A stretch of 64,000 nt of DNA. Origin: an uncultured Chloroflexia bacterium (GTDB taxonomy: Bacteria; Chloroflexota; Limnocylindria; Limnocylindrales; CSP1-4). The stretch lies in assembly GCA_963721765.1 (NCBI GenBank), contig CAVRJP010000002.1, positions 112,474-176,473 of the forward strand. Direction: 5' to 3'. The notes under the pieces are model-generated. The model was not told the origin of the DNA. It searched no databases and saw nothing but the letters and a program-made list of their open reading frames with translations. Below, in pieces: positions 5,530 through 60,937 of this stretch (its first letter is position 1; every line of letters begins with the position of its first letter). Made by a program: the position numbers and the translations under genes.

Positions 5530-5938
5530 TCAGGCGGGCTCTCGAGACCGTGCCGGCAGCGGGCATTCCGCAGGCAGCCCGAGCAGGCGCCCGATCCGGC
5601 GGCGATGCGAGGCGACCTCGCGGTAGAGCGGTTCGAGCAGAGCGTGGCCGAGCGGTTGATCGAGCAGCGAGACCAGGAGGCACCAGCGGGCCACGAGCCT
5701 GCCGGCCGCAAGCACGGCGCGGGCTCCCGTGAGGATGGCCCCATCCGAGCGGACGAAGTGGATGCTCGCGCCGAGCGCGCGGCCCCTGACCTGCGCCGCG
5801 ATCGTGGCATCTCGCTCGACATGCTGCAGCGCAAGGAGGCCGAGCCGGCGGGCAGGAACGCGCGCCTCGAGCCATGACGCCGATGCGACGCAGAATTCCG
5901 CAGTCGGCGTCATAAAGGAGTGTTCCCGATCTGTCCAT
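5530..5938 (-). pseudogene. DCC-family (DUF393) thiol-disulfide oxidoreductase, interrupted by a +1 frameshift inside the CxxC motif
   Basis: The N-terminus MDRSGTLLYDADCG is read in the frame of ORF 5156..5977. The rest (FCVASASWLEARVP...LLEPLYREVASHRRRIG) is read in the frame of ORF 5530..5949. The switch is at GAATTC 5893-5898. Removing one A or T gives YDADCG(F/I)CVASASW, the DCC CxxC motif. Span length is 3n+1. Confidence 0.75.
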
Positions 5939-5954
5939 GGGGCGCTCAATGCAG

Positions 5955-5980
5955 AACATGTTACTGATCAGTATCATGTT
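5955..5980. promoter_or_regulatory. 26-nt near-perfect AT-rich palindrome (candidate operator) in a divergent promoter region
   Basis: AACATGtTACTGATCAGTAtCATGTT has only the two symmetric lower-case positions mismatched. It lies 17 nt upstream of the DCC-like start (5938) and about 200 nt upstream of the ferritin-like gene (6184). Confidence 0.45.
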
Positions 5981-6183
5981 AATCGTCGCCTCGGGACGTC
6001 GTCAAACGGTGCAGCGCCCGATGGCCGTCATCCCGCACGGAACTGCAGTTTGGCTGCAAGGACGTACGAGGCGGATGGAGGCGCTGGGGCATGTCTCCGC
6101 CCGTATGGTCGGCGTGTCGTCTCCGGGAACCCCGAAATCCAACTGGTCGGACCGGGTACGCCTGCCTGAAAGCGAGGAGAACC

Positions 6184-6777
6184 ATGAACGACGCCCAGGT
6201 CAAGGAGCTGCTCTACCAGTCGCTCGAGGTCGAGATCGGCGGCCAGAGCGTGTACGAGAAGGCCATCAGCTGCGCCGCCAACCCGGAGCTCAAGGAGGAG
6301 TGGCAGAAGTACCTCGACGAGACGCGGACGCACGAGGAGATCCTTCGGTCGGTCTTCGGACGGATCGGCCTCGATCCCGAGCAGGAGACGCCCGGTCGCG
6401 AGGTCGTTCGGTTCAAGGCCAGGTCGCTCGTCAAGTCCATGGACATGGCGCTCGCCGAGGGCGGTCGCGCTGCGGCCCAGCTCGTCGCTGCCGAGTGCGT
6501 GGTCGAGGCGGAAACGAAGGACCACCAGGACTGGGAGCTCATCGGCCGCGTCGCCGAGAAGTCGACGGGCGAGATGAAGAAGGCCCTCCAGGAGGCCCAC
6601 GAGCAGGTCGAGGAGCAGGAGGACCAGCACCTCTACCACACGATGGGCTGGGCTCGCGAGCTCTGGATCGAGTCGCTCGGCATGCCGGCGGTCCTGCCGC
6701 CGCCCGAGGAGGAGAAGAAGGTGGTGACCGCGATCGGTGCCGCCCGCGCCGAGCAGTCGCGCGAGGACATGCTCTAG
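6184..6777 (+). CDS. Ferritin-like / four-helix-bundle domain protein (hypothetical)
   Basis: ATG at 6184 is preceded by GAGGAG (6174-6179). The protein is acidic and helical with repeated E..H pairs (ETRTHEE, EAETKDHQDWE, EEQEDQHLYH) suggesting a di-metal ferritin-like fold. The family assignment is tentative. Confidence 0.6.
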   Translation: MNDAQVKELLYQSLEVEIGGQSVYEKAISCAANPELKEEWQKYLDETRTHEEILRSVFGRIGLDPEQETPGREVVRFKARSLVKSMDMALAEGGRAAAQLVAAECVVEAETKDHQDWELIGRVAEKSTGEMKKALQEAHEQVEEQEDQHLYHTMGWARELWIESLGMPAVLPPPEEEKKVVTAIGAARAEQSREDML

Positions 6778-6883
6778 CCGGAGCCGTTATCCGCGGCCGC
6801 CTACTCGCTGTCCTACGACGGCGTGCGATGTCGGTAAGCACCGCGAAGGCCGAGGAAGGAGGTCCCTCCGCTACGCTTCGAGC

Positions 6884-7916: not shown

Positions 7917-7918
7917 CC

Positions 7919-9610
7919 GTGGCCGCCGAGGGGGAGCTCGCGCCCGACCCGGCGTGGCGCCGCGCGGCGCTGCAGGCGCTTGCCGACGAGAAGTTCGACG
8001 TCCTCGTCGTCGGCGGCGGGATCGTCGGGGTCGGGGCCTTGCTGGATGCGACGAGCCGCGGGCTTCGGGCGGCCCTCGTCGAGCAGCGGGACATTGCGTC
8101 CGGGACTTCGGGCAGGTCGTCCCGGCTCATCCACGGCGGGCTCCGCTACCTGGAGCAGCTCCACTTCGGCCTCGTCCACGAGGCGCTCGCCGAGCGGGCC
8201 CGGCTGCTGCGACTCGCGCCCCACCTCGTGCGCCTGGAGCCGTTTCTCTTCCCGATCTACGGCATCCCGCTCGTCCACCAGGCGTTCTACGGCAGCGGCA
8301 TCTTCCTGTACGACCTGCTCGGCGCGCGGCGGGATGGTGGATTCTCGCGGCACCTCCGGCCGTCGAGCGCGCTCGACTACGCGCCCGACCTGCGGCGCAA
8401 GGGCCTGACCGGCGCGATCCTCTATCACGACGGGGTCGAGGACGATGCGCGACTGGCGCTGGCCGTCCTCCGGACGGCGATCGCGGGGGGCGCCGTCGCG
8501 GCGACCCGCGTCTTCGCCGAGAAGCCGCTGCTCGACGGCGAGCGGCTGATCGGGGCGTCCGTTCGCGACCTCGTGACGCAGACCGATTTCGAGATCCGCG
8601 CCGAGCGGGTCATCGATGCAACGGGCGTGTGGGCGGCCGACACGGAGGCGAGATTCGCCGCGCTCGAGGGCGCCGAACAATTCGTCCCGAGCCGCGGCTC
8701 GCACATCATCATCCGGCGCGATCGGCTACCCGTGGAGGGCGGGCTCACGCTGCGCACGAGGGGGCGCGTCGTGTTCATCATCCCGTGGCCGGGCCACTGG
8801 ATCATCGGCACGACCGACCACCCCGACTCACGCCCACCCGAGCGCGTCGCGGCGCCGATGCAGGACATCGACGAGCTCCTCGAGACGGTGAATCGGCGGA
8901 TCGACATCGGCCTGACGCGGGGCGACATCGTCGGCACGTACGCCGGGATGCGGCCGCTCGTCGGCGACCCGGGTGGGTCGACGGTCAAGGCGTCGCGCGA
9001 GCATCGGGTCGCTGCGGACGCGAGCGGCCTCGTCCGCATCTCCGGCGGCAAGTACACGACCTACCGGGTGATGGCGAAGGACGTCGTCGACGCGTCGCTC
9101 GGCCGGACCGAGGCACGGAAGCGCCGGTCGCGAACGGCGAACCTGCCGCTCGTCGGCGCCGCCCCGCAGTCGGAGCTCGACCAGGTCGCGGGCAGCCTCG
9201 AGCGGCCACTTCGGGATGCGGCCGCGGCCCGTGGCCAGACGCGGGTGACCTGGCCCGCCCGCGTCGCGCGCCGGCTCGCCGATCGGTTCGGGCGCGAGGC
9301 GACCGAGGTGATGCGCCTCGCGCGGGAGCTGGACCTCGCGATCCCGCTGGGCGAGCGCGTCGACCACCTCCAGGCCGAGGTCGCGTGGGCGGCGCGGCAC
9401 GAGCTCGCGCTCTCGCTCGATGACGTCCTCGCGCGCCGCATGCGCCTCGCGCAGGAGCTGCCCGATCGCGGTGCGGGGATCGCGCCTCGAGTCGCCGCGG
9501 TGCTCGGAGCGGAGCTCGGCTGGGACGAAACGCGCCAGGCCGCCGAGGTGGAGCTTTATCTCGACACGGCGCGGCGCGAGTACGGCCTGCCATGGGCGAC
9601 GAACGGCTGA
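7919..9610 (+). CDS. glpD: FAD-dependent glycerol-3-phosphate dehydrogenase
   Basis: FAD-binding fold [14 protein letters not shown] and GlpD-type motif [19 protein letters not shown]. 563 aa, immediately upstream of glpK. Confidence 0.9.
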
Positions 9611-11139
9611 TCCTCGCCCTCGACCAGGGCACGACGTCGTCGCGCGCGATCGTCTTCGGGCGCGACGGTCGACCCGTCGCGAGCGCCCAGCAGGCCTTCG
9701 AGCAGCTGTTCCCGTCGCCGGGGCACGTCACCCACGATCCCGAGACGATCTGGCGAAGCCAGCTCGAGGTCGCGCAGCGCGTCGTCCAGGAGGTCGGCGG
9801 TGCGGATCGGATTGCCGCGATCGGGATCACGAATCAGCGCGAGACCACGATCGTCTGGGACCGCTCGACCGGCGAGCCCATCGCCGATGCCATCGTCTGG
9901 CAGAGCCGGATCACGGCCCCTGCCTGCGAGCGCCTCAGGATGGCCGGGCACGAGGCCATGTTCCGGGAGCGCACGGGCCTGCCCCTCGACGCGTACTTCA
10001 GCGGGCCGAAGATCGCGCATCTCCTCGATCTCGTGCCGGGCGCTCGCTCCCGTGCCGAACGGGGCGACCTCGCCTTCGGCACCGTGGACACGTTCCTGCT
10101 CTGGCGCCTGACGGGCGGCGCCGCAGGCGCGGGCGCGGTCCACGCGACCGACGTCTCGAACGCCAGCCGGACCCTCCTGTTCGACATCCACCGCCTCGCT
10201 TGGGACGACGAGCTGCTGGAGATCGTCGGCGTGCCCGCGGGCCTGCTGCCCGAGGTCCGCCCAACCTCGGGTGACTTTGCACAAAGCCATCCGGACGTCT
10301 TCGGCCGGCCGATCCCGATCGCTGCCCTCGCGGGGGATCAGCAAGCGGCGACGTTCGGCCAGGCGTGCTTCCAGCCCGGCGAGGCCAAGAACACGTACGG
10401 GACCGGAGCGTTCCTGCTGCTCAACACCGGCGCCTCGCCGACCGCGTCCGCGCACGGTCTCCTCTCGACGGTCGGCTGGCAGCTCGCGCCTTCGGCTCCC
10501 GCTACCTACGCGCTCGAAGGCTCCGTGTTCTCGGCCGGATCCGCCGTCCAATGGCTCCGCGATGGTCTTCGAGCGATCGCCGCGGCGCCCGACGTCGAAG
10601 CGCTCGCCGCGTCGGTCGACGACACCGGCGGCGTCTACCTCGTGCCCGCGTTCACCGGGCTCGGGGCACCGTACTGGGATCCCGACGCGCGCGGCACGAT
10701 CGTGGGCATCACCCGCGGCACCGGGCTCGCCGAGCTCGCCCGCGCGACCCTCGAATCGATCGCGTTCCAGGTCGCCGACGTCCTCGAGGCCATGGCCGCG
10801 GATTCCGGCGAGCAGATCCGAGCGCTGCGGGTCGACGGCGGGGCAGCGGCGAACGACCTGCTCCTCCAGCTGCAGGCGGACCTGCTCGGCGTGCCAGTCG
10901 AGCGTCCGGTCGTCGCCGAGACGACGGCGCTCGGCGCGGCGTACCTCGCCGGGCTCGCCGTCGGGTACTGGTCAGGGCTCGACGACGTGGCGTCGAACTG
11001 GGCGCTCCATCGCCGGTTCGAGCCCTCGATGTCCGACGACCGACGCCGTTCGATGCAGCGCGGCTGGCATCGGGCCGTGGAACGCTCGAGGGGTTGGATC
11101 GAAGGTGGTCAGGTGGCGAGCACGGCCGGCCGCGCCTGA
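9592..11139 (+). CDS. glpK: Glycerol kinase
   Basis: FGGY kinase motifs [28 protein letters not shown] and GDQQAA. It overlaps glpD by 19 nt. Confidence 0.92.
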
Positions 11140-11248
11140 CCGCGAACATCTGCTCGACCATGCATGCCGATACGTGTACAGTCGTCGTCCGCCCGGTCGC
11201 TCCGTGATCGTCGTCCACACTCGCGAGCCTTCCCCCCGCGAGGCCCAC

Positions 11249-13849: not shown

Positions 13850-14954
13850 TCAGGCCTTGACCAGCGCGAGCGCCTGGTCGAGGTCGCGCCAGAGATCCTC
13901 GACGTGCTCGAGGCCGACGCTCAATCGGATCAGCGTCTCCGGCGTGCCGGCGTCGCGCTCGGAGGCGTACCGCGCGCGCCGCTCCATCGACGACTCGACG
14001 GCGCCGAGGCTCGTCGCATGGACGATCAGCCGGCACCCCAGGCAGACGGCTTCCGCGTCCTCGCCGGAACCTTTCGTTTCGAACGAGATCATCGTCCCGG
14101 ACCCGGGATAGCGAACACGGCTGACGCGCGGGTGATCGGCCAGCCTCGCGACCAGCTCGCGGGCCGTTGCCGCGGCGCGTGCGTAGCGAGCCGGTAGCGT
14201 CCGCAGCCCGCGGAGGGCGAGGAAGGCCTCCAGGACGCCGGGGATCGCCCCTGTGTCGTGCCGACGCTTGACGAGCCGCTGGTGGAAGGTGGGATCGGCC
14301 GCGACGACGGCGCCGAGCACGAGGTCGGAGTGGCCGCCGATCAGCTTCGTGCCGGAGTGGAGGACGAGGTCGGCGCCGAGCGTGAGTGGCGTCTGTCCGA
14401 ATGGGGTCGCGAACGTGTTGTCGACGACGACCATCGCGTCGGCCTGTTTCGCGAGCGCGATCACGGCGGGGAGATCAACCACGTCGAGCATCGGGTTGGT
14501 CGGCGACTCCATCCAGACCAGCGCGGCGCCCGCGATCGTCCCGGCGAGCCCGTCGACGGTCAGCGCGGCGTGCGTCTCGAGCTCGATCTGGCCGCGTCGG
14601 ACGCGCTCCCGGAGCAGCCCGGTGACGCCGAAGTACGGGTGCGCCCTGGGCGATCACTCGAGCGCCGATCGGCAGCTCGTCGAGGATGGCCACGGTGGCT
14701 GCGAGGCCGGAGGCGAACGTGACGCAGTGGCCGTGCTCGAGCTCCCCCAGCGCCATCTCGAGCGCCTCCCAACCCGGGTTCCCATCGCGCCCGTACTCGA
14801 TCCCGCCGCCCTGGTGGAACGTGGACGCGGGCACGATCGGCGCGTTCAGGGGGTTTCCCGGTGCGCGGGCCGGCCGCCCGGCGACGACCGCGATCGTCTC
14901 GGGATGCAGTGATTGGTCGCCCGCGATTGGCTCCTTCGCCGTAGGGGATGTCAC
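13850..14954 (-). pseudogene. PLP-dependent cystathionine gamma-synthase/beta-lyase family (MetB-like), interrupted by a +1 frameshift
   Basis: The N-terminal part (GTG 14954; ...YGRDGNPGWEALEMALGELEHGHCVTFASGLAATVAILDELPIGARVIA) is in the frame of ORF 14475..15080. The continuation (RAHPYFGVTGLLRE...WMESPTNPMLDVVDL...HSGTKLIGGHSD) is in the frame of ORF 13850..14512. The switch is in CCCTGGG at 14644-14650. Span length is 3n+1. The start overlaps the plsY stop (GTGA). Confidence 0.8.
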
Positions 14955-23495: not shown

Positions 23496-24230
23496 ATGCC
23501 TGATACCGGAACCGGCGCTCGCTTCCGAGCCATCCGTCATCGCCGTGGCTGGAGACAAGCCGACCTCGCCGAACGGGCAGGCGTCTCACAGGGCGTGATC
23601 TCGCTGATCGAGCGGGGCCGAATTCGAGGACGTCACGATCCGAAAGCTGCGCCGGATCGCGCGCGAGCTTGATTCCGAGTTCACCACGCAGCTTCGGTGG
23701 CGGGGAGGCGACCTCGATCGGCTCGTGGATGAGGCGCACGCGACCATCGTGGGCCGAGTCGTCGCGATGCTTCGTAGCGACGGCTGGGACGTGCGGCTGG
23801 AGGTGTCCTATTCGATCTACGGCGAGCGCGGCTCGATCGACGTCCTTGCATGGCATCCGCAGGGGCGGTTGCTGCTCGTCGTCGAGGTGAAGAGCGACCT
23901 AGTCGTGGTCGAGGAGACACTCCGCAAGCACGACGAGAAGGTGCGACTGGCACCAAGGATCGCCGGCGATCAGTTCGGATGGCGGCCAACGAGCGTCGGC
24001 CGACTCCTGGTTCTGCCGTCGGTTTCGACGCAGCGCCGTCGCGTCGAACGCCATGCGACGGTGCTGGACGCCGCATACCCGCTGCGCGGCTTGAGCCTTC
24101 GTCGGTGGCTGGGCCGGCCGACGGACGCTGTGTCGGGGCTCCTGTTCATCGACGTCGAGGGCAGGTCATCATCTGGCCGCGAGGCGATCAGTCGCAGGCG
24201 GATCAGGCCGCCACACATCGAGGCGGCTGA
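23496..24230 (+). pseudogene. XRE-family HTH fused to a YraN/PD-(D/E)xK nuclease-like domain; frameshifted, 3' end unresolved
   Basis: ATG 23496 gives MPDTGTGARFRAIRHRRGWRQADLAERAGVSQGVISLIERGR. At GAATTC 23620-23625 the sense continues in the +1 frame (FEDVTIRKLRRIARELD...GERGSIDVLAWHPQGRLLLVVEVKSD, a D...ExK nuclease-fold motif). That frame has no stop until 24762 and would run through the next gene, so the real end is unknown. 24230 is the next stop in the adjacent frame. Confidence 0.5.
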
Positions 24231-24253
24231 CGCCGAGACCTACAATCGGGGCC

Positions 24254-24706
24254 GTGAGCGAGACGGCAAATCCCGCCTTCGACGCGGCATTCGCGCGCCT
24301 GAAAGGCATCCTCGAGCCATACGGCCGGAGGATGCACATTTCCAGCGAAGGCCCGGATGGCTATGGCGTCGACATGGCGCCGGAAGCCGAGCGCAATCCG
24401 ACGACCTGGTTCGGCGCGGTGCGTCGGGGGAAGGCGTACGTCTCGTTCTACCTGATGCCGATCTACGTCGACCCCGCGATGCTCGACGATGCCTCTCCCG
24501 AGCTCAAGAAGCGGATGCAGGGCAAGTCGTGCTTCAACTTCAGGGCTGTCGACGAGAAGCTCTTCGAGGAGCTCGAGGACCTCACTCGACGAGGCTACGA
24601 GCAGACGGCCGGCGATCCGGCGTGGGGCGTCTCGCAGCGCGAGAAGCACGACATGGCCTACCGCAAGGCGATGTCCGACCGCCGGCTCGCGCGCACGAAG
24701 TCGTAG
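24254..24706 (+). CDS. Hypothetical protein, DUF1801/YdhG-like (tentative)
   Basis: 150-aa ORF with coding-like composition. The pattern KAYVSFYLMP...GKSCFNFRAVDEKLFEELEDL resembles the YdhG-like fold. It is paralogous to the next gene. Confidence 0.55.
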   Translation: MSETANPAFDAAFARLKGILEPYGRRMHISSEGPDGYGVDMAPEAERNPTTWFGAVRRGKAYVSFYLMPIYVDPAMLDDASPELKKRMQGKSCFNFRAVDEKLFEELEDLTRRGYEQTAGDPAWGVSQREKHDMAYRKAMSDRRLARTKS

Positions 24707-25753: not shown

Positions 25754-27303
25754 GTGGCCAAGGTGACGATGCCGCAGCTCGGCGAGAGCGTGGCCGAGGG
25801 GACGATCGGCAAGTGGCTGAAGAAGCCCGGCGATCACGTGGCCAAGTACGAGCCGCTCCTCGAGGTCATCACCGACAAGGTCAACGCCGAGGTGCCGTCG
25901 CCGTTCGAGGGCGTCCTGAAGGAGATCCTCGTCGAGGAAGGCGCGACGGTCCCGAACAACGCCGAGATCGCGGTGATCGAAGAAGCGGGCGCCGCGGCTG
26001 AGTGCCTCGACGAACGGCTCGGGCGCTCCCGCCGCGAAGGCCGATGCGCCAAGTGCGGCATCGAAACAAGCCGAAGCGCCGCCCGTCGAGGACCCTGCGC
26101 CAGAACCCTCCACGGAGGCGAAAGCCGAGTCGACGAACGCCGCGGCCGACGTCGGCGATGGCCAGCAAGCGCGCCCGCGCACGGCCGCGCCCGACCACAG
26201 CAGCGCCTGCCAACGGGCCCGCGGGCTCCGACGAGCGTGCCACCCAGGACATGCCAGGCAGCGCGGATGCCCGGATGACCCCGGCGGTCCGGCGCCTCCT
26301 TCGCGAGCACGGCCTCACGGCGGCCATGATCGTGGGGACCGGCGGAGGCGGACGGATCACCCGCGAGGACGTGACCGACTTCGTGGAGAGCCAGCGAACC
26401 GGCAAGGCCGTTGGAAGGCAGGACGCGTCGCACGGGGCCCGCAACGACGCCCGCGGGAGCGGGCCAGCCGCCGCTGCCCCGGTCGGGCCGGGCAGGGGAG
26501 GAGAGCCGGCAACCGCGGCGCCCGCGCCGCGCGCGCCTGCCAGCGCCTCCGCGCCCGCCACGCAGGCGAGTTCGTCGATCGCGTTCCCCGAGGGCGCCGA
26601 CGAGGTCCTCGTCCCCATGACCCAGATGCGCAAGGGCATCGCCGCGCAGATGACCCGCGCCCTCCAGGTACCTCACGCGTACGTGCAGATGGAGGTCGAC
26701 GTCTCGAACCTCGTCAAGCTGCGAGAGCGCGAGAAGAAGGGCTACCAGGCCCGCGAGGGCATCTCGCTGAGCTTCGTGCCGTTCGTCGTCAAGGCGTCGG
26801 CCGAGGCGCTCAAGCGCAACCCGACGTTCAACGCCCACTGGACCGAGAACGGGCTGCTCGCCAAGCGGCGGATCAACATCGGCATCGCCGTGGCGGTCGA
26901 TGACGGCCTGATCGTTCCGGTGATCCGCGACGTCGACAACCTGTCGATCAGCGGTCTGAACAAGTCGATCGCCGAGGTCTCCGAACGGGCGCGCGCAGGC
27001 AAGTTCAAGGTCGATGACTTCGGTGGCGGCACGTTCACGGTCGACAACACCGGCTGGCTCGGCACGAACATGGTCATGCCGATCATCAACGTGCCCGAGG
27101 TCGGGATCGTGACCATGGACCGGATCACGAAGCGGCCGGTGGTCGTCGAGACGCCCGACGGCGACGTGATCGGCATCCGATCGATCATGAACATGGTCCT
27201 CGGGGTCGACCACCGGGCGAACGACGGCGCCGGTGGGGCCGCCCTGCTGCGTGACATCAAGAGCTGGCTCGAGGCGGTCGGGCCGGACACGGCGATCTAC
27301 TGA
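25754..27303 (+). pseudogene. Dihydrolipoamide acyltransferase (E2), read in three frames (two +1 shifts in the linker)
   Basis: The lipoyl domain (MAKVTMPQLGESVAEGTI..EVITDKVNAEVPSP) is in the frame of ORF 25754..26278. An Ala/Pro/Glu linker (ASTNGSGAPAAKADAPSAASKQAEAPPVEDPAPEPSTEAKAE) is in the third frame from about 26000. The E3-binding domain (MTPAVRRLLREHGL) and catalytic domain (DHRANDGA) are in the frame of ORF 26002..27303. Span length is 3n+2. Confidence 0.8.
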
Positions 27304-30058: not shown

Positions 30059-31102
30059 ATGCGACCGGAGTATCGAGAGGAGCCCTGCCGGTCGGCGCTG
30101 AACCGGGTCAAGGGAATGATGTTCGGGTGGTCGCTGAACCCATACATGGGCTGCGCCCACCAGTGCACGTTCTGCTACGTCCGGGCCTTCGAGAAGCGCG
30201 CGGATCGGCCGTCGGATGACCGATATGGGGCGTCAATTCGGGTGAAGACGAACGTCGTCGAGGTACTTCGGCGCGAGCTGGCACGGCGATCCTGGAAGGG
30301 CGAGGTCGTCGCCATCGGTGCGGCGACCGATCCATACCAGCCAGCCGAGGGTCGATATCGGTTGACCCGGGGCTGCATCGGCGAACTCGCCGAAGCCCGC
30401 AACCCGTTCGCGATCATCACCCGCGGCCCGATGATCGTTCGTGACGTCGACCTCCTGGTCGAGGCGACGCGCTGGGCGAAGGTGTCCGTCACCTTCTCCG
30501 TGCCGACACTGGATCCCGAGATCTGGCGGACGACAGAGCCGAACACGCCGCCGCCTGCGCAGCGATTGGGCGCACTGCGCGTCCTTCGCGACGCCGGGAT
30601 CGAAGCTGGCGTCGGCATGGCCCCGATCCTGCCCGGCCTTTCGGACAATCCCGAGCTGATGGCGGATGTCGTGAAGGCCGCGCGGGACGCCGGTGCGACG
30701 TCGATCTGGACGAATGTGCTCTACCTGCGCCCGGGAACTCGCGAGCACTTCATGAACAGCCTCGCCCGCGATTGGCCCGAGCTCGTGCCGCGCTACGAGC
30801 GCATGTACGCGGGTCGAGCGTACCTGCCGAAGGACCAGGTCGAGCCGGTTCGACGCGAGGTCGCAGAGCTGCGTGATCGGTTCGCCATCAGCGATCCCGA
30901 ACCCGTTGCTCGGTTGGTGGGGACGGTCGCACGATCGAGACCGGTTCGTCGGACGCCGCCGCCTCGCCGCTCGACCACCGATCGAGCAAGGTCGATCGTC
31001 CGTCCCGTCCAGCTCGCGTTGGAGGGCCTCGAGCTCAATCCGGCCGGTAAATCAGGCGCGGTGCGGAACCTGGAGCGAGCCTCGACCGTCCGGGCGGCGT
31101 GA
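30059..31102 (+). CDS. Radical SAM protein, Rv2578c / SplB-like (DNA-repair photolyase COG1533-type)
   Basis: CxxxCxxC motif in MGCAHQCTFCY close to the N-terminus. Conserved ATDPYQP and ITRGP blocks. An alternative ATG at 30041 lies inside the palindrome. Confidence 0.8.
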   Translation: MRPEYREEPCRSALNRVKGMMFGWSLNPYMGCAHQCTFCYVRAFEKRADRPSDDRYGASIRVKTNVVEVLRRELARRSWKGEVVAIGAATDPYQPAEGRYRLTRGCIGELAEARNPFAIITRGPMIVRDVDLLVEATRWAKVSVTFSVPTLDPEIWRTTEPNTPPPAQRLGALRVLRDAGIEAGVGMAPILPGLSDNPELMADVVKAARDAGATSIWTNVLYLRPGTREHFMNSLARDWPELVPRYERMYAGRAYLPKDQVEPVRREVAELRDRFAISDPEPVARLVGTVARSRPVRRTPPPRRSTTDRARSIVRPVQLALEGLELNPAGKSGAVRNLERASTVRAA

Positions 31103-31816
31103 CCAGCGCACAACTGAGTTCGGCGCGGCCAATTCGTCGCGCGTCACGAACGCTCCTGTCGCTCGTCGCGATCGCGGTGCTCTGGGGCTGCGCGACCGCT
31201 CCATCGCCGACCCAACCTGCGGCCACGTCGCCGGCAGCCTCGCCTGGACCGACATCGGCAGGCGCAACGACGCCTCCTTCTGGGTCACCAAGCGCCGTCC
31301 CAGGCGACGCCGTCCTCGGAAGGCCGTCCGGCGGTCGCCTGCATCGATGTCGACGAAGCCGATTGTCGGAGCTACACGGACAGCATCGTTGCCGCCGTCA
31401 TTCAGGCCCGCGGCGCCCCGTTCGCGCTCCAGATCAGGCCGGAATCGGCCGTCGCGGACTTCGTGGACGGCGGCGAGCCGCTGCGGATCACCCTCACCGG
31501 TCCGAACGATCCACCGATCCCGGATGGCGGCTCATCGTGGCTTGGACCATACGAGCCGAGCTCGCCGCGGGTGCTCGGTCCCGGACCGTTCCCGTTCGAG
31601 GTCGGGCACTGCGGGCTCTTCTGGCAGGTCGACTTCGATGGATCGTTCTGGGTGCCGTTCGGGCCGTTCGCCGGCGAGGCGCCCGCCGTCCTCGGATCGG
31701 AGAGCGGCCAGATCCGGCTGCTTGGACCGAACCTCGCCGAGTACGCGGGCGCCGACGGATTTATCGCCAACCTCGTGCGGTTTCCAGGTCCGAAGCACAC
31801 CTTCGGGTGCCGTTGA
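31099..31816 (+). pseudogene. Lipoprotein of unknown family (paralogue 1), interrupted by a +1 frameshift
   Basis: The signal peptide and lipobox (LVAIAVLWGC) and a Pro/Ser/Thr linker are in the frame of ORF 31099. From about 31327-31333 the sense continues in the frame of ORF 31463..31816 (AVACIDVDEADC...GPGPFPFEVGHCGLFWQVDFDGSFW), colinear with the intact paralogue downstream. Span length is 3n+1. Confidence 0.7.
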
Positions 31817-33559: not shown

Positions 33560-33590
33560 TCGAACGGTGCACCACATCTCTCAAATGAAA

Positions 33591-33613: not shown

Positions 33614-33726
33614 CTTGATCATGGATATCCCTGAATGTCCTGATCCCTGAGACTACTCCAACACCATCTGAACGTTCGCCCCATGCCGTCGGCTGTACGG
33701 ACCGACGTCTTCAGATTGAGGAGGCA

Positions 33727-35370: not shown

Positions 35371-35408
35371 ACCAACGCTCGTGGATCATTTGTGTTCATC
35401 GAACGGAT

Positions 35409-35430
35409 CTCCAATCTTTCACGATTGGAG
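35409..35430 (-). terminator. Hairpin downstream of the regulator gene
   Basis: CTCCAATC (35409-35416) pairs with GATTGGAG (35423-35430) across a 6-nt loop. It lies about 15 nt after the minus-strand stop at 35445. There is no clear U-tract. Confidence 0.35.
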
Positions 35431-35444
35431 GACCATACACCCGA

Positions 35445-36262: not shown

Positions 36263-37451
<1,189 letters not shown>

Positions 37452-41858: not shown

Positions 41859-42158
41859 TCAGGCGGGGACGCCGGGCCAGCGCTCGTAGAGGACCGCGAC
41901 CGCGACCTTCGTCAAGTAGCCACTGCCGTCGTTGCCGAACGCCGTGCCCGCGTGACGAAGCGGGAAGCTCGACATCGACAGCATCCGCAGCCCCGACGAG
42001 GCACGCGCCCGCGCGTCGGCCGCGATCCAGCCCATGAGGTTGGCGGGTTCGACCTCCGTGCCGAGATCCGGCGGCTGGTAGACCACGAGCACATGGTCGG
42101 GTCCCGCTGCGTACTCGGTCTGCGCGATCTCGTAGCCCGATTCGTCGACGCCAGCCAC
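41859..42158 (-). CDS. Hypothetical 99-aa protein, last gene of the MoxR/VWA operon
   Basis: GTG at 42158 lies 2 nt after GAGGAGGGG. The composition is coding-like (VAGVDESGYEIAQTEYAAGPDHVLVVYQPPDLG...). No family recognised. Confidence 0.5.
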   Translation of the reverse strand: MAGVDESGYEIAQTEYAAGPDHVLVVYQPPDLGTEVEPANLMGWIAADARARASSGLRMLSMSSFPLRHAGTAFGNDGSGYLTKVAVAVLYERWPGVPA

Positions 42159-42174: not shown

Positions 42175-45096
42175 TCAGCCGCCGCGCGCTCGCCTCTTTG
42201 CCTCGCGCAGCCGCGCCAGCGTATCCATCGGCTCGGCCTCGGTCGAGGCCGTCGGGCCCGCAGGGGCGCGCGTCGCAACTCCTGGCGTGCCGGCGGGTGA
42301 GCGAATCTCGGAGACCTCGGCCGCGGCCACCGTCGACGGTCCGGCGACGGGCTCGTCGGCGCGACGGAGCAGCGCCGCGCGCGCTGACGCGCCACCCGCT
42401 CGCTCCCGTGACGCGAGCATCCCTTCCGCCGCTGCAGTGCGAGGCGCCGCCGCTCTCCGGAGCCGCCAGCGTCGTCCGACCCAGCCCCGAGCGTCGACCA
42501 GCTCGCGCCGCCCGATGGAAACTCGGCGCAGCGCGATGTCGAGCGGCCACAGGAGCAGCGCCAGGATGAGCAGCCAGGGCCACAGCTCCGTGAACGAGGA
42601 CGTCGTGCGCAGGTCGTGGCGCCACGGATCGAGAGGAAGCACGACCTCGCGGCCACCCGTCGCCGAGCGCAGTGCCGCGAGGAACGGCGTGTTCACGCCC
42701 AGGAGCCGGTACTCGGCCGCGACCGGCTCGACGAGGCCCACCGTTCGGCCGAGCGCCGGCGCGCCGGGTCGCGTCTGGTTGATCCGGACGGCATACGCGC
42801 CCGAGTCGATCTCGCCGAGGTCCGACTCGTAGACGCCCGGCGCCACCTGGTCCAGGAGCACCTCGCGCGGCGTCAGGTCGGGCCCGACGATGACCGCCAT
42901 CGTGCGGTAGAAGTCACGCGGCGAGCCGTCGCTCTCGACGCTCTCGACGTGGAGTCGTGTCTTGCCGCCGAGCGTCTCGAACGCCGCCTCGATGCCGCCG
43001 GTCTCCTCGCCCGGGAACGTCCAGCCGACGAGCTGGCTGAAGAACCGGTTGAAGCCAGTCCAGCCGACCCAGTTCTTGGCCCACCGACCCGTCGAGTCGG
43101 ACGTCCAGGCCACCGACCGGCCGAGCCCGTACTGCCACTGGGCAAGAAGTGGGTCGTCGCGCGCCGAGACCAGCACGAGCTGGGCCGCGGACTTGATCGT
43201 CGTGCCGTTGTAGCCCAGGAGCTTCGGCAGCCCATCCTCGAGGCCACGCAGGATCGGCGACGAGCTGGTCTGGATCGGGAAGAACTCCTCCTCGATGATC
43301 TGCTGGCCGGCGACCTGCTGGGTCTCCTTGAGGAAGATGTCCGGGATCGAGGCGACGTTGTTGGCCGCGTAGAACCGGCCGCCGCCCTGCTTCGCGAGCG
43401 CCTCGAGGAACGGGTTGGAGCCGCCGCCGGCGCCGACGGTCGAAAGCGTGATCCCGGCGGCCTTCATGCGGTCGATGATCGCGTCGTACTGGCCGGAGCT
43501 CGACCAGCCGTCGGTCAGCAGGATCACGTGGCGACGCTGCGCGGTGGCCTTCTCGAGCGACCCGACCGCCTGCTCGAGGCCCACGAAGATGTTCGTCTGG
43601 CCGAGCGGCTGGATGCCCGAGATCTGGCTGCCGACGTCGCCGACGTTGCCCAGCGGCTTCGTCTGGATCACCCAATGGGCGGACTCGTTGAACGCCACCA
43701 CCCCGAACTCGTCGCGCGCCGTGAGAGCCGCGGCGGCGCGCAGGATCGCCTCCTTGCCGATATCCACCTTGCGCACGCCGGACATCTGGCCGCCGCCGCC
43801 ACCGCCGTCGAACGTGTTGCAGTGGCAGGCGTCCATCGAGCCCGACTTGTCGATGACGATCACGAGCGCGATGTCCGGCTCGCGCTGTCGGTTGCGCACG
43901 CCCATGTCGACCGGGAGGGTCTCCTCCATCGGCGTCTTCGTGTACCCGCCCGCGCCGTAGGCACGTGGGCCGCCGACCATCACGAGCCCTCGGCCGAGGT
44001 CGCGAACGTAGACCTGGAGCGCGGCGAGCTGGCGATCGTTGAAGCGCAGTCGCGGCACGTCGACGACGACGACGCTGTCGTACGTCGCGAGCCCGGCGAA
44101 GTCGGTCGGGAGCGCCTCGGGGATGATCGAGTCGACGTCGTGGCCCTCCGCGGTCAGGGAGGCGACGAGCTCGGCCGCGACCTTCTCGTCGCCGGCGAGC
44201 ACGAGGATCCGCGGCTCGCCCTTGACGATCGTGTTCGAGTCGGCCCGGTCGTTCTGGCTGAACGTGTCGCCGGCGGCCTCGACGACGGCACGGAACGTGT
44301 GGAATCCCGCCTCCGTCGGCTTGACCCGGAAGACGACGCGGTTCGCGCCCGCCTTGAGCTCCACGCGCTCGGTCGCGACCAGGGCGCCGTCGGCGAAGAG
44401 GCGAACGGTGGCCGCCTGGGCGATGCTCGAGCTGATCTCGGCGATCGCCTCGATCTCTTCGCCAAGACGGGCGGTCGACGGCGTGGTGAGGCGGTCGACG
44501 AGCACCTCCTCGCGGTCCACGAGGCCGATGACGCGCGTCTCGACCTGGATGCCGCGGGCCGCCGCGAGCGCGGCTTCGCGCTGGCCGCGACCCGTCGTGT
44601 CGTTGCCGTCGGAGATGAGGACGATCCGCTTCTGGGCCGCGTCGGGGAAGAGCGCGGCCGCGAGGCGCAGGGCGCCGCCGATGTCCGTGGCGGCCTTCAC
44701 CGGCGTGCTGCGCAGGCTGTCGATCGCCCGGAGCTCCTCCGGCAGCCGCTCGACGAGCGCGTCCTTGCCGAACGCCACGATTCCGGCCTGGTCGTCCTCG
44801 GGCATCACCTCGAGGGTCTCGCGCAGGAACGCGAGCGCGTCCTCGCGTCCGGCCGCGCCGACGCTGTCCGAGAGGTCGACGACGAACACGGTGGCGAGGC
44901 GATCGACCGGGAGCACGAGCTGGAAGCCGGCAAGCGCGAGGACGAGCGCGGACAGCAGCACCGAGCGCAGGGCGACCGCTGCGCGGCGCCGGCGCGCGCC
45001 GATCCGCCGGCGCGCGGCGAGATGGGGCACGAACGTGAGGATCAATGCCGGGATGAGGAGGACGAGCCAGATCGGGGCGTCGAACCGGATGCCCAT
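42175..45096 (-). CDS. Membrane-anchored protein with two VWA domains and a GATase1-like domain (BatB-like)
   Basis: ATG at 45096. N-terminal TM helices. MIDAS motifs VDLSDSV and IDKSGSM. A central LVLAGDE...VMVGGP amidotransferase-like segment and a C-terminal TM helix (LWPWLLILALLLWPL). Confidence 0.8.
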   Translation of the reverse strand: MGIRFDAPIWLVLLIPALILTFVPHLAARRRIGARRRRAAVALRSVLLSALVLALAGFQLVLPVDRLATVFVVDLSDSVGAAGREDALAFLRETLEVMPEDDQAGIVAFGKDALVERLPEELRAIDSLRSTPVKAATDIGGALRLAAALFPDAAQKRIVLISDGNDTTGRGQREAALAAARGIQVETRVIGLVDREEVLVDRLTTPSTARLGEEIEAIAEISSSIAQAATVRLFADGALVATERVELKAGANRVVFRVKPTEAGFHTFRAVVEAAGDTFSQNDRADSNTIVKGEPRILVLAGDEKVAAELVASLTAEGHDVDSIIPEALPTDFAGLATYDSVVVVDVPRLRFNDRQLAALQVYVRDLGRGLVMVGGPRAYGAGGYTKTPMEETLPVDMGVRNRQREPDIALVIVIDKSGSMDACHCNTFDGGGGGGQMSGVRKVDIGKEAILRAAAALTARDEFGVVAFNESAHWVIQTKPLGNVGDVGSQISGIQPLGQTNIFVGLEQAVGSLEKATAQRRHVILLTDGWSSSGQYDAIIDRMKAAGITLSTVGAGGGSNPFLEALAKQGGGRFYAANNVASIPDIFLKETQQVAGQQIIEEEFFPIQTSSSPILRGLEDGLPKLLGYNGTTIKSAAQLVLVSARDDPLLAQWQYGLGRSVAWTSDSTGRWAKNWVGWTGFNRFFSQLVGWTFPGEETGGIEAAFETLGGKTRLHVESVESDGSPRDFYRTMAVIVGPDLTPREVLLDQVAPGVYESDLGEIDSGAYAVRINQTRPGAPALGRTVGLVEPVAAEYRLLGVNTPFLAALRSATGGREVVLPLDPWRHDLRTTSSFTELWPWLLILALLLWPLDIALRRVSIGRRELVDARGWVGRRWRLRRAAAPRTAAAEGMLASRERAGGASARAALLRRADEPVAGPSTVAAAEVSEIRSPAGTPGVATRAPAGPTASTEAEPMDTLARLREAKRRARGG

Positions 45097-47340
45097 CAGC
45101 GATTCCGCCCGGGCTTGGCGGTGCCGCTCGCTGCCGCGGCCGCGCGCGCGGCGGCCTCGGTCGCCGCGGAAGCCGTCGTGACGCCCGTCGCGGGCGGTGA
45201 CCTGCGGATTCCGCGCCAGAGTCGCGTGACCGCGTCGCGGTGGTAGACGAGCCACTCGGCGAGAAGGACGAGGAGCACGATGAGCACGATCGCGACCCAC
45301 AGCTCGTCACGCGCGGCAGGCCGCTCAGCCACGGTGCCCGCGCCGGGTACGCCCGAGGCGCCGGGCTCGAGCGTGGGAGCGGGGGTCGCGACGGCCGATG
45401 CCCCCGGGCTTGCACCTGCGCTGGCTGCTCGCCGCGCGCCCGAGTCCCTCGATCGAGGACGGCGAGCCGGGCGCGATATCGCTCTCGCCCGGGTCGAACA
45501 GGTCCACGGCGAATTGCACGGGAGCGTTGGGGTCCACGGGCGGCGCGGTCGGGATGGGGCTGGCGGTCGCACCCGGCGCGAGCGTCGAAGGCGGAGAGGA
45601 GGCGCCAGGCGAAGGCGTCGCGATGGGCGCCGGGGTTGCTCCGGACGGACCTGCCGTCGGCGCGGGGTAGATCGCCACGGCGGTGTAGATGCCGAGGAGG
45701 TCGGTCTGGCTGAACGCGACGGACGCCGCGCCCGCCGTCGCCGGAGCGAGATCGACCGTCCCACCGTCCGGCCGGGTCACGATCATCGACGTGGCGCCCG
45801 GCGGGACCGGGATCGTCACCGGGTCGCCCGGCGCGAGGGCCTCGGCTGGTGCAGCCGAGCCGCCGAGGAGCTCGCCGGTGAGGTTGGCCATGAGCAGCGG
45901 GAACGCCACCTGGAGGGGCAGATCCGAGTTGCGTGGCAGGAAGGCGAGCACGCCCGCGCGCTGGCCTTCCAGCTCGCCGACGTAGAGCAGCGGTGATCCG
46001 GAAGGGCCCGGGATGACGGCTCGCGCCCACGCCGGCAGGACGAGCTTCGACGCTTTCCCGACATGCACGCTGGACAAGTCGACGAACTTGAGGATCGGCT
46101 CGTCCGGCGAGATCGTCGCGATGCCCGGGTCGGTCAGCGTTCCGACCACCTCGCCCAGATCGCTCGATTTCGTCGGCGCGATCGAGAGGATCGCGGTGCG
46201 CGGCAGCGTCGCGGGCAGGAAGCCCTCGAAGATGATCAGGTCGAACAGCTCCGGATGCGTGTCCGGCCCGTATTTCGCGGGCGTGATTCCGTACAGCTCC
46301 GTGTTGGGCAGGTACGAGAGGGCGGTCTCGAGGTACGGGTCCCCCTCGCCGACCAGCAGGATCCGGCGCAGCCGGTCGGGCGGCACGACCGCCCAGGCCC
46401 GGTCGTCGAGGGTGAGCGCATCGGGGTTCCCCGATCCCTGGGAACCGGTCAGGTGGACGAGCCGGACCTCGATGACCGAGGCGTTCCGGGGGACGTCATC
46501 GATGAGCACCTCGGTCCGCGTCTGCGGCTCGAGGTTCGGCAGGTCCTTCGCCTCGATCATGATGCCGTCGGCGAAGAGCTGGAGCGTGCGTCCGGCACTC
46601 TCGATGTCGAGGTTCGCGACGCTGATGAAGACGGACCTCGTCACACCGGACGACGCCGGTCGCACGGCGAGCGCGACGATCGCCTGGTTCTTCCGTTCGC
46701 GACCAACCTGGAGGACGCTGACCTTGTGGTCGAGGCGGTTCACGGGCTTGATCGCGAGGGCAGCATCGGTCGCGACGAGGATCTCCGCGTCACCCGCCCG
46801 GGCAGCCAGCGCGTCAGCGAGGTTCAAGGCGTCGCCAAGGTCGCCGGTCGATGGCGAGACGGTGATGCCCTCGATCGCGGCGCGGACGCGGCCGAGGTCG
46901 TTCGTGCCGTTGACGACCACGCGCGCGGTATTGCCCGCCGCGATGACGCTCACCGTGCCGCCGGCAGGCAGGTCGCGGAGCTTCTCGAGGACCTTGGCCT
47001 TGGCCTCGGTGAGCCGGTCCGGCGGGATGTCCGAGGCGCCCATGCTGGCCGACGTGTCGATGACGATGACCACGTCGCCCGCGAGTCCCGCCGGGCGCTC
47101 GAGGAACGGCCGCGCAGCGAGGATCGCCAGGAGCAGGACGAGCAGCAGCTGGAGCAGGAGCAACAGGCTTCGCCGCAGCTTCTGCCACGGCGCGTTGGCC
47201 TCGATGTCCGTGAGCAGCTTCTGCCACAGCAGGGTCGAGGGCACGACCTGCTCGTCGCGCCGGAGCTTGAGCAGGTACATCGCCACGACGACCGGGATGA
47301 ACAGCAGCCCGAGCAGCGCGAGCGGGGAGAGGAAGCTCAC
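45096..47340 (-). pseudogene. BatA-like protein (aerotolerance-regulator N-terminal TM domain plus VWA), interrupted by a +1 frameshift near the 3' end
   Basis: MSFLSPLALLGLLFIPVVVAMYLLKLRR and MIDAS VIDTSASM are in the frame of ORF 45325..47340. The expected C-terminal anchor (RDELWVAIVLIVLLVLLAEWLVYHRD) is in the frame of ORF 45096..45764. The switch is at about 45400-45450. Span length is 3n+1. The stop overlaps the next ATG (TGATG). Confidence 0.75.
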
Positions 47341-48315: not shown

Positions 48316-48330
48316 TGGCGTGGCCGCGCG

Positions 48331-52645: not shown

Positions 52646-53610
52646 GCCTGGACGCTCCCGTCTCCGGCGAGATCGCGCTCCGTGACCTGGAGGAACAGCT
52701 CCTGGAGATCCGTGGCCGCGGGCGAGTAGCTCGCGACGCGGATCCTGGCGCGGACCGCCGCGGCGAGGAGCTCCGCAGCCCCCGTCTCGTCACCGCCGAA
52801 TCCGATCGTGATCTCGCCGGCATTCTCGACCTCGGCCGAGGCGACGTCGGGGCGGCCCTCGAACCATGCCAAGGCGGCCTGGACGGTCTCCTGATCGCCG
52901 AGGACGCGCACGCGCAGGACCTCGCCGATCCGCAGACGCTGGCCGATCTCGGCGATCGTGCCCGAGGCGAGCACGCGCCCCCGGTCGACGATCGCCACGG
53001 AGGTGCACAGCTCCTCGAGCTCGGGGAGGATGTGGCTGCTGATCAGGATCGTCTTGCCCAGGTTGCGCAGCTCCCGGAGCAGCTCCCGCAGCTCGACCCG
53101 AGCGCGAGGGTCCAGGCCCGAGGCGGGCTCGTCGAGGAGCAGGACCTGCGGATCGTGCACGAGCGCGTGCGCGAGGCATAGCCGCTGCTGCATGCCGCGC
53201 GACAGGCTGAGGACGTACGCATCTCGCTTCGCGGCGAGGTCGACGAGCTCGAGCAGGTCGCCGATCATCCGCCGTCGCTGTGCGGGGCCGAGCCCATAGC
53301 ACCGACCGAAGAAGTCCAGGTACTCCCAGACTTTCATGTCGTCGTAGACCCCAAAGGCGTCGGGCATGTAGCCGAGGACGCGACGAACGGCCTGCGGGTT
53401 CCGACGAATCGAAACGCCCGCGATCTCGGCATCGCCAGAGGTCGGTTCGAGGAGCGTCGCGAGCATCCGCAGCATCGTGGTCTTGCCCGCGCCGTTAGGG
53501 CCCACGAGCCCGAAGATCTCGCCCTGCTCGACCGACAAGTCGACGCTCGCGACTGCGAGCGTGCCGTTGTATCGCTTGACCAGGCCGCGGGCTTCGACGA
53601 TGGCGCTCAT
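52642..53610 (-). CDS. ABC transporter ATP-binding protein
   Basis: ATG at 53610 within ORF 52642..55119. Walker A GPNGAGKTT, signature LSRGMQQR, Walker B LLLDEPASGLD. Confidence 0.9.
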   Translation of the reverse strand: MSAIVEARGLVKRYNGTLAVASVDLSVEQGEIFGLVGPNGAGKTTMLRMLATLLEPTSGDAEIAGVSIRRNPQAVRRVLGYMPDAFGVYDDMKVWEYLDFFGRCYGLGPAQRRRMIGDLLELVDLAAKRDAYVLSLSRGMQQRLCLAHALVHDPQVLLLDEPASGLDPRARVELRELLRELRNLGKTILISSHILPELEELCTSVAIVDRGRVLASGTIAEIGQRLRIGEVLRVRVLGDQETVQAALAWFEGRPDVASAEVENAGEITIGFGGDETGAAELLAAAVRARIRVASYSPAATDLQELFLQVTERDLAGDGSVQA

Positions 53611-56081: not shown

Positions 56082-56261
56082 GCAACCTCCCTTGTATCGC
56101 TCGATCATTGCCCTACATGGCGGCCGCGCGGGCCCGAAAGCGCCGGCGGCCGACCCCAACGACGCCGCGGGTCGCCCGATAGTTGCGCGGAGCCCGCAGG
56201 TTGCGTCGACTTTTGTTGCCGGTTTGTTGCCCGGCCGGACGCCATCGTACGATTCCCACCC

Positions 56262-58500: not shown

Positions 58501-58580
58501 GTCCTCGGGCGCCGACGGCGGCCGTCGGCGCTGGGTTGGTAGAATGCCGGCCGACCCGGCGGAACTCGCCGGTCGTCCGT

Positions 58581-58657
58581 GCCGCATTCGTCTAGAGGCC
58601 CAGGACACCGCCCTCTCAAGGCGGAGATCATCGGTTCGAATCCGATATGCGGTACCA
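58581..58657 (+). tRNA. tRNA-Glu (anticodon CUC), CCA encoded
   Basis: Hand-folded cloverleaf. Acceptor GCCGCAT/ATGCGGT (G1:U72). D-arm GTCT..GGAC with the Glu-type loop AGAGGCCCA. Anticodon stem CCGCC/GGCGG with loop CTCTCAA. T-arm ATCGG TTCGAAT CCGAT. 3' end ACCA. Confidence 0.85.
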
Positions 58658-58745
58658 CCCAATCACCAGGCCGGCGGGCGCCGCCATTGATCACGTTTGT
58701 CGCCCACCGACGAGACCGGACACGAATGCCGAATGATGTTGTCGC

Positions 58746-59363
58746 ATGACTAGCGCACGATCGGTTTGGCCGGCCGGCACCGAGGTGGCCTATCGGGCAC
58801 GAGCAGGTCGGCCTGCCATCGTCGACGTCCCGGAGCTCTCCTACCTGATGATCGACGGCGAAGGTGATCCGGCTTCGGCGGCGGCGTATGTCGATGCGGT
58901 CGAGACGCTCTACGCGGTTGCATTCGCCGTGCGCTTCGACTTGAAGCGCCGCGCGGGTATCGATGCCAAGGTCATGCCGTTGGAAGGCATCTGGTGGTCG
59001 GATACGGCCGGCGACGTCTGGGCGTCGCGCGATGCGTGGCGCTGGACCATGCTGATCGCGGAGCCTGACGCGGTAACGGAACACGTGCTGGCTCGGGCGC
59101 TGTCCGTCGCGGCCCGCACGCGGCCACGCGCGCGCCTCCAGCGGCTGCGGCACGGCCGACTATCCGAGGGTCGCGTCGCGCAGGTGCTGCACATCGGTCC
59201 GTATGGCGAAGCAGAACGTCCGACGATCGAGCTCCTCCACGCGCATATTGCCGACCAGGGTCTCCGCGGGCGCGGCAAACACCACGAGATCTACCTGAAC
59301 GACGCGCGGCGGACTGATCCGTCACGCCTGCGAACGATCATCCGCCAGCCGGTCGCAGGCTAG
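58746..59363 (+). CDS. GyrI-like small-molecule-binding domain protein
   Basis: Pattern YLMIDGEGDP...MPLEGIWW...HIGPYGEAERPTIELLH...HHEIYLNDARRTDP is typical of GyrI-like/SOUL-type effector-binding domains. Confidence 0.7.
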   Translation: MTSARSVWPAGTEVAYRARAGRPAIVDVPELSYLMIDGEGDPASAAAYVDAVETLYAVAFAVRFDLKRRAGIDAKVMPLEGIWWSDTAGDVWASRDAWRWTMLIAEPDAVTEHVLARALSVAARTRPRARLQRLRHGRLSEGRVAQVLHIGPYGEAERPTIELLHAHIADQGLRGRGKHHEIYLNDARRTDPSRLRTIIRQPVAG

Positions 59364-59388
59364 CGCGGTCCCGCCACAGGATCCGGCC

Positions 59389-60937
59389 TCAGTAGATGCT
59401 GGGGAACCAGCGCCCGACGATGTTTCCGAGGTCCTTGCTGGTATGGGCATCGAGGGTTTCGAGCAGCGATCGCGTCGAGCCGATGCCGAAATCGATGGTC
59501 CGCCACGTAGTCACGGATGCCGTCCCAGAACGCGGCGGAGCCCATCGCTCGTCGGACGTCGCGGAGCGTGCGCGCGCCGTGGACGTAGATCTGGCCGAAG
59601 TAGCAGCTGCTGCTGTAGCGATAGATCGAGAGGTCCAGGCGCCGCTTCTTGCAACCGGTGCTCCGCCACGTGTCCGAGACGTGCTGGCCGAGGAACGTCG
59701 CAGCGGACTCGTCGGCGAATGGCTGCATGGCCCCGTCCGAGCCAACGATCCCATAGAACCACTGGTGCGCCGTCTCGTGGTAGACGTTCCAGCGCAGCTG
59801 GAACCCGGTCATCCCGGTCGGGATCCAGATCATGCCCGGACCTTCGAGCGCGTAGCCGCCCGCCGTCTGGGCGATCTTGAACGTGTCGTACGGGTAAGCG
59901 CCCGCGAGCGCGCTCATCTGCTTGAGCCCGTCCGCGGCCTGGTCGAGCACCTTCGCGGTGGGGAAGCTCGGTCGCACGTAGGCGAGCAGCCGCACGCCCC
60001 CGACCTGGCGCTCGCGGAGCGAGAAATGCGGGCTCGCGACGATCGTGAAGTCGCGGACGTTCTCGGCCTCGAACGTTTGCGTCAGCCCGTTCACCGCGGT
60101 GCGTCGACCGGGCGCGACGATCACGAGGCTGCGATCCGTCGTGATCCGGACCCGGATGAACGGGCTCAGGGCGCTGAAGAACGGGTCGCCGTGGTTCGGG
60201 CGGTCGAACGGCCTGTGCAGCCCGACCCAGGGGAGCAGGCGGTTGGCCTGGAGGATGCCGTCGGTGCGGGTGAACATCCAGCTCGAGCCGCCGAGGCTCG
60301 AACGGAAGGTGGCGCGGAACCGGACGCGGATGGTCGTGGACGCGCTTTCGGGCAGGACGCCGCCGAGGGGGACGACGATTGTCTGATCCTTGAGCTTCGC
60401 CGCGACGTCGCCGCCATCGACCTGCACGCGCAGGAGGCGGAGGTTGCCGAGCGGCCCGGCGATCGTGTTCAGCTCGACGCGATCGATCCCACCGCCGGAT
60501 TGGTTCTCGAGAGTCACCGTGGCATCGACCCGCACGCTCCGATCATTGAAGCCGAGGTCCAAGTCGACGTCGTAGGTCGCCTCGAGCCTGATGCTCGTGC
60601 GGTTGACGCTCCCGGGGACGATCGCTGACGGGCCCGACTGCGCGACCGCCGATGTTGGTTCCGGCTCGACGGCCGCCGTCGCAGCCAGCCCGACGGGCTG
60701 CGTGGCAGCCGGTTCCTTGCTGCCGATCGCCCCTGCGGCGGGATTGCCCTGGGCGGGATCGATGGCCGCCGGCGAGCGGCCAGGCACCATCGTGCTGATC
60801 GCCGAGGCGCCGCCGATGACCACGACGAGGAGCAGCGTGGTCAGGAGGATGGCCTGCCCGCGCCGGGCTCCTCCGCGAAGCGAACCCGAATCACGCAGGC
60901 TCCGATCGAGCTGCACGTGTCCATCTTGGACCCGCAT
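59389..60937 (-). pseudogene. M1-family zinc metallopeptidase, membrane-anchored, interrupted by a +1 frameshift near the 3' end
   Basis: ATG 60937. TM anchor (AILLTTLLLVVVIGGASAI). HETAH-x18-E zinc site in the frame of ORF 59360..61066 up to ..DYVADHRF. The C-terminus (GIGSTRSLLETLDAHTSKDLGNIVGRWFPSIY) is in the frame of ORF 59389..59754. The switch is at GAAATC 59488-59493. Span length is 3n+1. Confidence 0.8.

Follow-up and report, generated by a model that had tools for sequence, protein, structure and literature searches.

Surplus single bases, all in the +1 direction, break eight genes of a Limnocylindrales contig and probably stem from nanopore-type consensus errors

We analysed a stretch of 64,000 nucleotides from an uncultured Chloroflexia bacterium (GenBank assembly GCA_963721765.1, contig CAVRJP010000002.1, positions 112,474 to 176,473 of the forward strand), referred to here as the window, in which eight conserved protein-coding genes are interrupted by surplus bases that shift the reading frame in a single direction. 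From a comparison of assemblies, we conclude with high confidence that the extra bases are a technology-linked insertion artefact of the consensus and not a biological feature. The window has a G+C content of 70% and a very strong GC signal at third codon positions, and homologues of its proteins point to Candidatus Limnocylindrales in the Chloroflexota. Exact copies of seven of nine intact window proteins were found in a public protein collection, and all seven come from one long contig.

Translation in three frames places the N-terminal part of each of the eight genes in one frame and the remainder in the +1 frame. There are nine junctions in total, nine +1 and none -1, so that 8 of the approximately 53 genes in the window (~15%) are broken, at a density of 14 insertions per 100 kb, or about one per 7 kb. 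If both directions had equal odds, nine shifts out of nine in the same direction would have a two-sided probability of 0.004. Arithmetic on the coordinates of the original prediction gives start-to-stop spans of 3n+1, or 3n+2 in the case of the E2 acyltransferase. Each junction consists of exactly one lesion and is mended by deleting one base, and the broken genes contain no second lesion. The original prediction held that at least eight genes are each broken by one extra nucleotide and that all shifts are +1. Both statements are borne out: the Pfam, homologue and DNA alignments are colinear after repair, and across the ~53 genes the count is nine of nine, with zero -1 shifts or internal stops. 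It had also proposed that the repaired proteins be aligned with their homologues; this was done, and they are colinear once one base is removed.

Frame switches were sought with a hidden-Markov segmentation of GC content at third codon positions (GC3), with a codon-usage model, and with tblastn of the open reading frames (ORFs) of relatives, which reaches most of the window. The GC3 and codon-usage models put frame switches at the claimed junctions. Elsewhere in the window, neither the two models nor the relatives revealed any -1 shift or internal stop, and the other switches given by the composition models correspond to normal transitions between genes or to a (GQ)n repeat.

The same frameshift detector was applied to 82 related loci, and an event was counted if at least three independent relatives supported it. 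Twenty-six of these loci (528.6 kb) come from Microflora Danica (MFD), whose metagenome-assembled genomes (MAGs) were built from nanopore reads only, with Flye as the assembler and a single round of Medaka 1.8.0 for polishing (PMC12313526); an R10.4.1 Medaka model appears in the workflow test of the same paper. The MFD loci contain 43 frameshifts of +1 and two of -1, whereas the remaining loci, mostly short-read and amounting to 713.6 kb, contain zero +1 and one -1, the latter at an N run. In DNA alignments against 14 relatives apiece, the affected MFD locus has a single base too many. Their positions differ from MAG to MAG, and they are therefore not inherited. The best-covered gene encodes E3 and sits ~2 kb upstream of the E1-beta match; it is affected in 7 of the 26 nanopore loci, a rate of about one event per 6 kb and near that of the window. 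As a control, 100 indels were planted in short-read loci and sought with the same detector, which found 34 of the 45 insertions and 41 of the 55 deletions and gave every one of them the correct sign. Given that insertions and deletions are detected equally well, the +1 bias is not caused by the method. Among the relatives, the +1 signature follows the sequencing method and not phylogeny.

The extra bases are present in the sequence as given, and they could be taken for real, very recent insertions, arising for example from a mutator background or from a loss of selective constraint, with E2, acyl-CoA dehydrogenase and the others as fresh pseudogenes. The ratio of non-synonymous to synonymous substitution rates (dN/dS), measured against the related loci L001 and L002, bears on this proposal. 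For acyl-CoA dehydrogenase it is 0.09 upstream of the break and 0.10-0.11 downstream, and for the BatA-like protein 0.25 and 0.21, respectively. As dN/dS is equal on both sides, the downstream parts have been constrained normally for essentially the whole divergence time, and by this measure the breaks would be either brand new or not real. Brand-new mutations would likewise give one lesion per gene and an unchanged dN/dS. What argues against them is that nine of nine lesions are +1, with zero deletions or stops, while bacterial mutation spectra lean to deletions; that the signature in the relatives goes with sequencing method; that central metabolism genes are hit beside intact partner subunits; and that E2 is hit twice within ~200 bp. 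Hence, we regard real, recent insertions as very unlikely. Genuine decay of a genome, such as that of Mycobacterium leprae or of recent symbionts, is recognized by mixed insertions, deletions and stops, multiple lesions and relaxed selection. The window is like such genomes in having many conserved genes cut by frameshifts, but it has neither a mixed lesion spectrum nor multiple lesions, and selection is not relaxed downstream of the breaks. The view that a systematic assembly or base-calling bias, and not pseudogene formation, lies behind the breaks is thus supported by the census, the unbiased detector, the single lesions and the unchanged dN/dS.

The extra bases would be functional if these genes were expressed through programmed +1 recoding, whether by frameshifting at the ribosome or by slippage during transcription. 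Programmed +1 ribosomal frameshifting occurs, for example, in prfB, and the window shares its direction at every shift; several junctions also lie in short runs (AA, TTT, GGG) that could in principle slip. Unlike prfB, however, the junctions have no conserved site and no slippery motif in common, and at each junction tested the orthologues keep a single frame. Moreover, the broken positions vary between MAGs and are absent in the mostly short-read loci. We give recoding almost no credence.

The contexts of the insertions are informative as well. Three of the nine window junctions are GAATTC, GAATTC and GAAATC, for which repair gives GATTC or GAATC, and at all three the aligned relatives are one base shorter. 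Three of the 43 MFD events (in L015, L027 and L048) also fall on GAATTC, GAAATC or GATTTC, where the relatives have GAATC or GATTC. Hexamers of this kind are scarce: the window has 14 and the MFD loci have 78. Because GAWWTC hexamers (W being A or T) are rare yet recurrently hit, the change from GAWTC to GAWWTC is a strong hot spot common to the window and the nanopore MAGs. Eight of the 14 window hexamers lie in frame inside intact genes, and most of the 86 GAWTC sites in the window are read without frame disruption. The other events occur either within short stretches of G or C or outside any run. No single motif was found around the insertions: enrichment of 4-mers and 5-mers is weak (GGTC/GACC) and non-significant after multiple testing.

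The hot spot may in part reflect base modification, such as N6-methyladenine (m6A) at GANTC. Methylation-linked errors, at GANTC among other sites, are described for R10.4.1 assemblies (PMC12392509), where Lohde et al. (2024) are cited for methylation-associated R10.4.1 base-calling errors. The likeness lies in a recurrent short motif, GANTC being a known m6A motif that is tied to Brucella assembly errors; the reported errors are mostly substitutions, whereas those at GAWTC here are insertions.

The hot spot also bears on the idea that base-calling was sound and that the errors arose during assembly or polishing from mixed close strains, through indel-polymorphic or misaligned reads. Soil metagenomes contain many strains, polishing of the MFD MAGs relied on a consensus model, and the final contig would look alike. 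Nevertheless, a mixture of strains predicts neither a direction bias nor a sequence-specific hot spot such as GAWTC to GAWWTC, and we find it very unlikely indeed. Such a mixture is also an artefact, and at the level of the assembly it is alike with insertion by base-caller and polisher.

By far the most probable explanation is that base-caller and polisher are responsible: a long-read, nanopore-type, unpolished metagenome assembly would have produced the nine junctions as consensus errors and not as mutations of the organism. A base would be inserted at certain contexts, namely short G/C runs and the recurrent GAWTC to GAWWTC, and, with reads as sparse as they tend to be in a metagenome bin, the error would persist in the consensus. 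The surplus base would then shift the frame by +1, and gene callers would give truncated or split proteins. Watson and Warr, in 2019, reportedly described how indel consensus errors in nanopore-only genomes break up gene calls. In later work, nanopore-only bins below ~40-fold depth were found to retain frameshift-causing indels (Sereika et al. 2022, PMC9262707), and both high G+C and methylation are recognised sources of error (PMC11649196). The nanopore-only errors (PMC9262707) resemble those in the window in several respects: they are isolated single-base indels in otherwise intact genes, they lead to truncated or split protein calls, they are worse in low-coverage metagenome bins, and they are absent from short-read assemblies of relatives. 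We infer that this contig was itself made by a nanopore-type route.

Several points weigh against a nanopore-type artefact. The claim is built on assemblies and relatives, and nanopore is the presumed platform of the contig. The errors classically ascribed to nanopore data are deletions in long homopolymers; the events here are almost all insertions (9:0 in the window, 43:2 in the MFD relatives) and affect runs no longer than three bases. For isolates assembled at 30-100-fold depth, ~0.6-2 indels per 100 kb are reported; the density in the window, 14 per 100 kb, exceeds this roughly tenfold, which is consistent with a low-coverage bin and fits only with low coverage. Finally, a search of the literature gave no strict insertion bias for R10.4.1 with Medaka, and because no published insertion-only statement was found, the direction bias is drawn from our census. 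Were the extra bases truly in the DNA, this would be a soil Limnocylindrales with many very recent +1 insertions, concentrated at sites such as GAWTC, for which we see only a very slim chance. A lineage-specific mutational process or a tolerance of +1 recoding would then have to be supposed, along with a technical reason for which short-read assemblies miss the bases.

The eight genes are as follows, in order along the window. The gene for a DCC1-like thiol-disulfide oxidoreductase (5530..5938, minus strand) has its extra base in the GAATTC at 5893-5898. Deletion of one A or T gives back the D-C-G-x-C motif, and the repaired protein covers positions 1-112 of the 113 in the Pfam model in a single stretch. 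The N-terminal sequence RSGTLLYDADCG, just before the break, is identical in L098, and in the DNA alignment L006 is one base shorter than the window at the junction. In the MetB-like gene (13850..14954, minus strand), which encodes a pyridoxal phosphate enzyme of cysteine and methionine metabolism, PF01053 (Cys_Met_Meta_PP) is matched from position 1 to 97 in one frame and from 103 to 380 in the +1 frame. The junction is confined to 14635-14653 (CAGGGCGCACCCG), its base-level position being approximate, and the frame models change frame at 14642/14643 and 14663/14664.

The gene for an XRE helix-turn-helix and nuclease-like protein (23496..24270, plus strand, with an approximate 3' end) is broken in the GAATTC at 23620-23625. 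Comparison with 10 relatives places a +1 shift at 23614-23647, the HTH_3 match is continuous through the repaired junction, and the DNA of L053 has one base fewer than the window there. The frame of this gene has no stop where its homologues of 250-290 amino acids end (~24230-24270); it is open to 24762, and the extension, whose tail is not conserved, crosses the next gene (24254-24706) in a different frame; a further indel or a lost stop may lie hidden there.

The E2 acyltransferase of a 2-oxoacid dehydrogenase complex (25754..27303, plus strand) has its Biotin_lipoyl domain upstream in frame 0 and its E3_binding and 2-oxoacid_dh domains downstream in frame +2. The original prediction of two shifts in this gene holds as regards the net shift, which is +2 relative to the relatives; the split into two +1 shifts, at ~25996-26003 and, in the linker, at ~26165-26215, is drawn from linker composition. 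Over the 60 codons of the linker, the middle frame has 2 arginines and a composition of alanine, proline and serine like that of the relatives, while the other two frames have 16 and 20 arginines. Because only the middle frame gives an arginine-poor linker of this kind, E2 likely carries two +1 shifts. A single -1 shift was considered and is less likely, as both alternative linker frames are arginine-rich, unlike the linkers of all relatives.

In the lipoprotein gene (31099..31816, plus strand), the signal peptide and the lipobox (LWGC) share one frame, the conserved cysteine-rich domain follows in the +1 frame, and the junction lies in a Ser/Pro linker at ~31285-31345. The downstream frame has no start codon until 31463. 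After repair, the protein aligns in one stretch with homologues of 220-257 amino acids, from the lipobox cysteine to the C-terminal domain. It also differs from them in frame, lacking an 18-residue loop (LYGCP…CP…L.AR, with two cysteines) that is found in all 7 of the aligned homologues.

The acyl-CoA dehydrogenase gene (36263..37451, plus strand) has Acyl-CoA_dh_N upstream of the break, with positions 23-97 of Acyl-CoA_dh_M and the C domain downstream. The surplus base falls within TGGGAAGGGCGAC (36693-36698), where the simplest reading is that GG has become GGG, and two relatives are one base shorter at this site in the DNA alignment. The repaired protein has 395 amino acids, the same as its 93%-identical homologues, and is gapless at TTARWEG/DGG. 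For the BatA/VWA membrane protein (45096..47340, minus strand), comparison with the L001 orthologue of 750 amino acids places SLGR upstream of the junction and the transmembrane tail PAARDELWV in the +1 frame. The junction is at ~45423-45442 (GGGCGCGCGGCGAGCAGCC), and the frame models change frame at 45372-45394.

The M1-family metallopeptidase gene (59389..60937, minus strand) has its extra base in the GAAATC at 59488-59493 (on the gene strand, CGATTTCGG), where the DNA of L084 has one base fewer than the window. The repaired tail (…YVADHRF/GIGSTRSLLETL…WFPSIY) agrees with 10 homologues to the last residue, whereas P0171, the M1 product of this contig in the database, turns to nonsense after DHRF. 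In L083 (1-746) and L084 (1-529), about 10 kb from the M1 orthologue, there is an N6_N4 DNA methyltransferase (PF01555) of 447-448 amino acids; the corresponding position falls past the end of the window. It may be relevant to the GAWTC hot spot; its assignment as a CcrM-like GANTC enzyme was tried and dropped, the Pfam match being weak and partial and a PDB match lacking.

The remaining signals from the search for frame switches have ordinary explanations. The switch at 9592-13159 spans two complete genes, for an FGGY kinase and a Big_7 protein, and that at 52642-56159 spans the two genes of a DUF4350-like protein and an ABC ATPase. The HAD and ALDH genes at 960-3291 are complete and divergent, and an apparent +1 event at ~4600 is the boundary between divergent genes for luciferase-like and HhH-GPD proteins. 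An odd signal at 49770-50288 is the (GQ)n repeat, which lies within a protein of 683 amino acids (49395-51446, minus strand) with membrane and coiled-coil segments and no Pfam match. This protein contains a run of ~60 Gly-Gln dipeptides encoded by (CAGGGC)n, in which the codon-position GC signal is inverted and mimics a gene on the opposite strand; unlike its neighbours, the protein has no exact copy in the protein collection.

Other features of the window and its relatives were observed along the way. At 33557-35504 there is an island of lower GC (~0.63 against 0.70) and weak codon bias, containing a minus-strand ORF of 547 amino acids with only a faint Fn3-like match; the syntenic locus L001 lacks this island, which may have been acquired. 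Two short minus-strand stretches have coding-like signals and no counterpart in L001, one at 27257-27589, overlapping the 3' end of E2, and one at 41859-42150, between the start of the acetyl-CoA synthetase gene and the stop of a VWA gene. ARAGORN and Rfam agree on a tRNA-Glu(CTC) at 58581-58657, whereas an 82-nucleotide tRNA-Arg(GCG) called by ARAGORN at 27695-27776, overlapping the start of an epimerase gene, is without Rfam support and is probably spurious. Among the relatives, L002 (JGI 3300044699, Ga0418691_22644) is a metagenome contig of 31.7 kb in which E1, E2, MoxR and other genes are heavily fragmented; over 10 kb, its alignment with the window contains 509 gap columns, and it looks like a poorly polished long-read contig.

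The original prediction also warned that automated annotation of the contig would be distorted, and this has come about: the database holds the garbled M1 call P0171 and P0291, a 117-residue fragment of the lipoprotein, both of which seem to derive from the present sequence. Of the genes on the deposited contig, ~15% are mis-called, and garbled products are already in protein databases. The census suggests that nanopore-only MAGs from this high-GC clade are generally prone to errors in one direction, at about one surplus base per 6-12 kb, which frameshift-aware annotation or short-read polishing could fix. The GAWTC hot spot might in addition serve as the footprint of a methylated motif. The breaks themselves have no biological significance, and their consequences are practical: inferences drawn from this MAG on metabolism, pseudogene load or genome decay, such as that of a seemingly "inactive" E2, would mislead.

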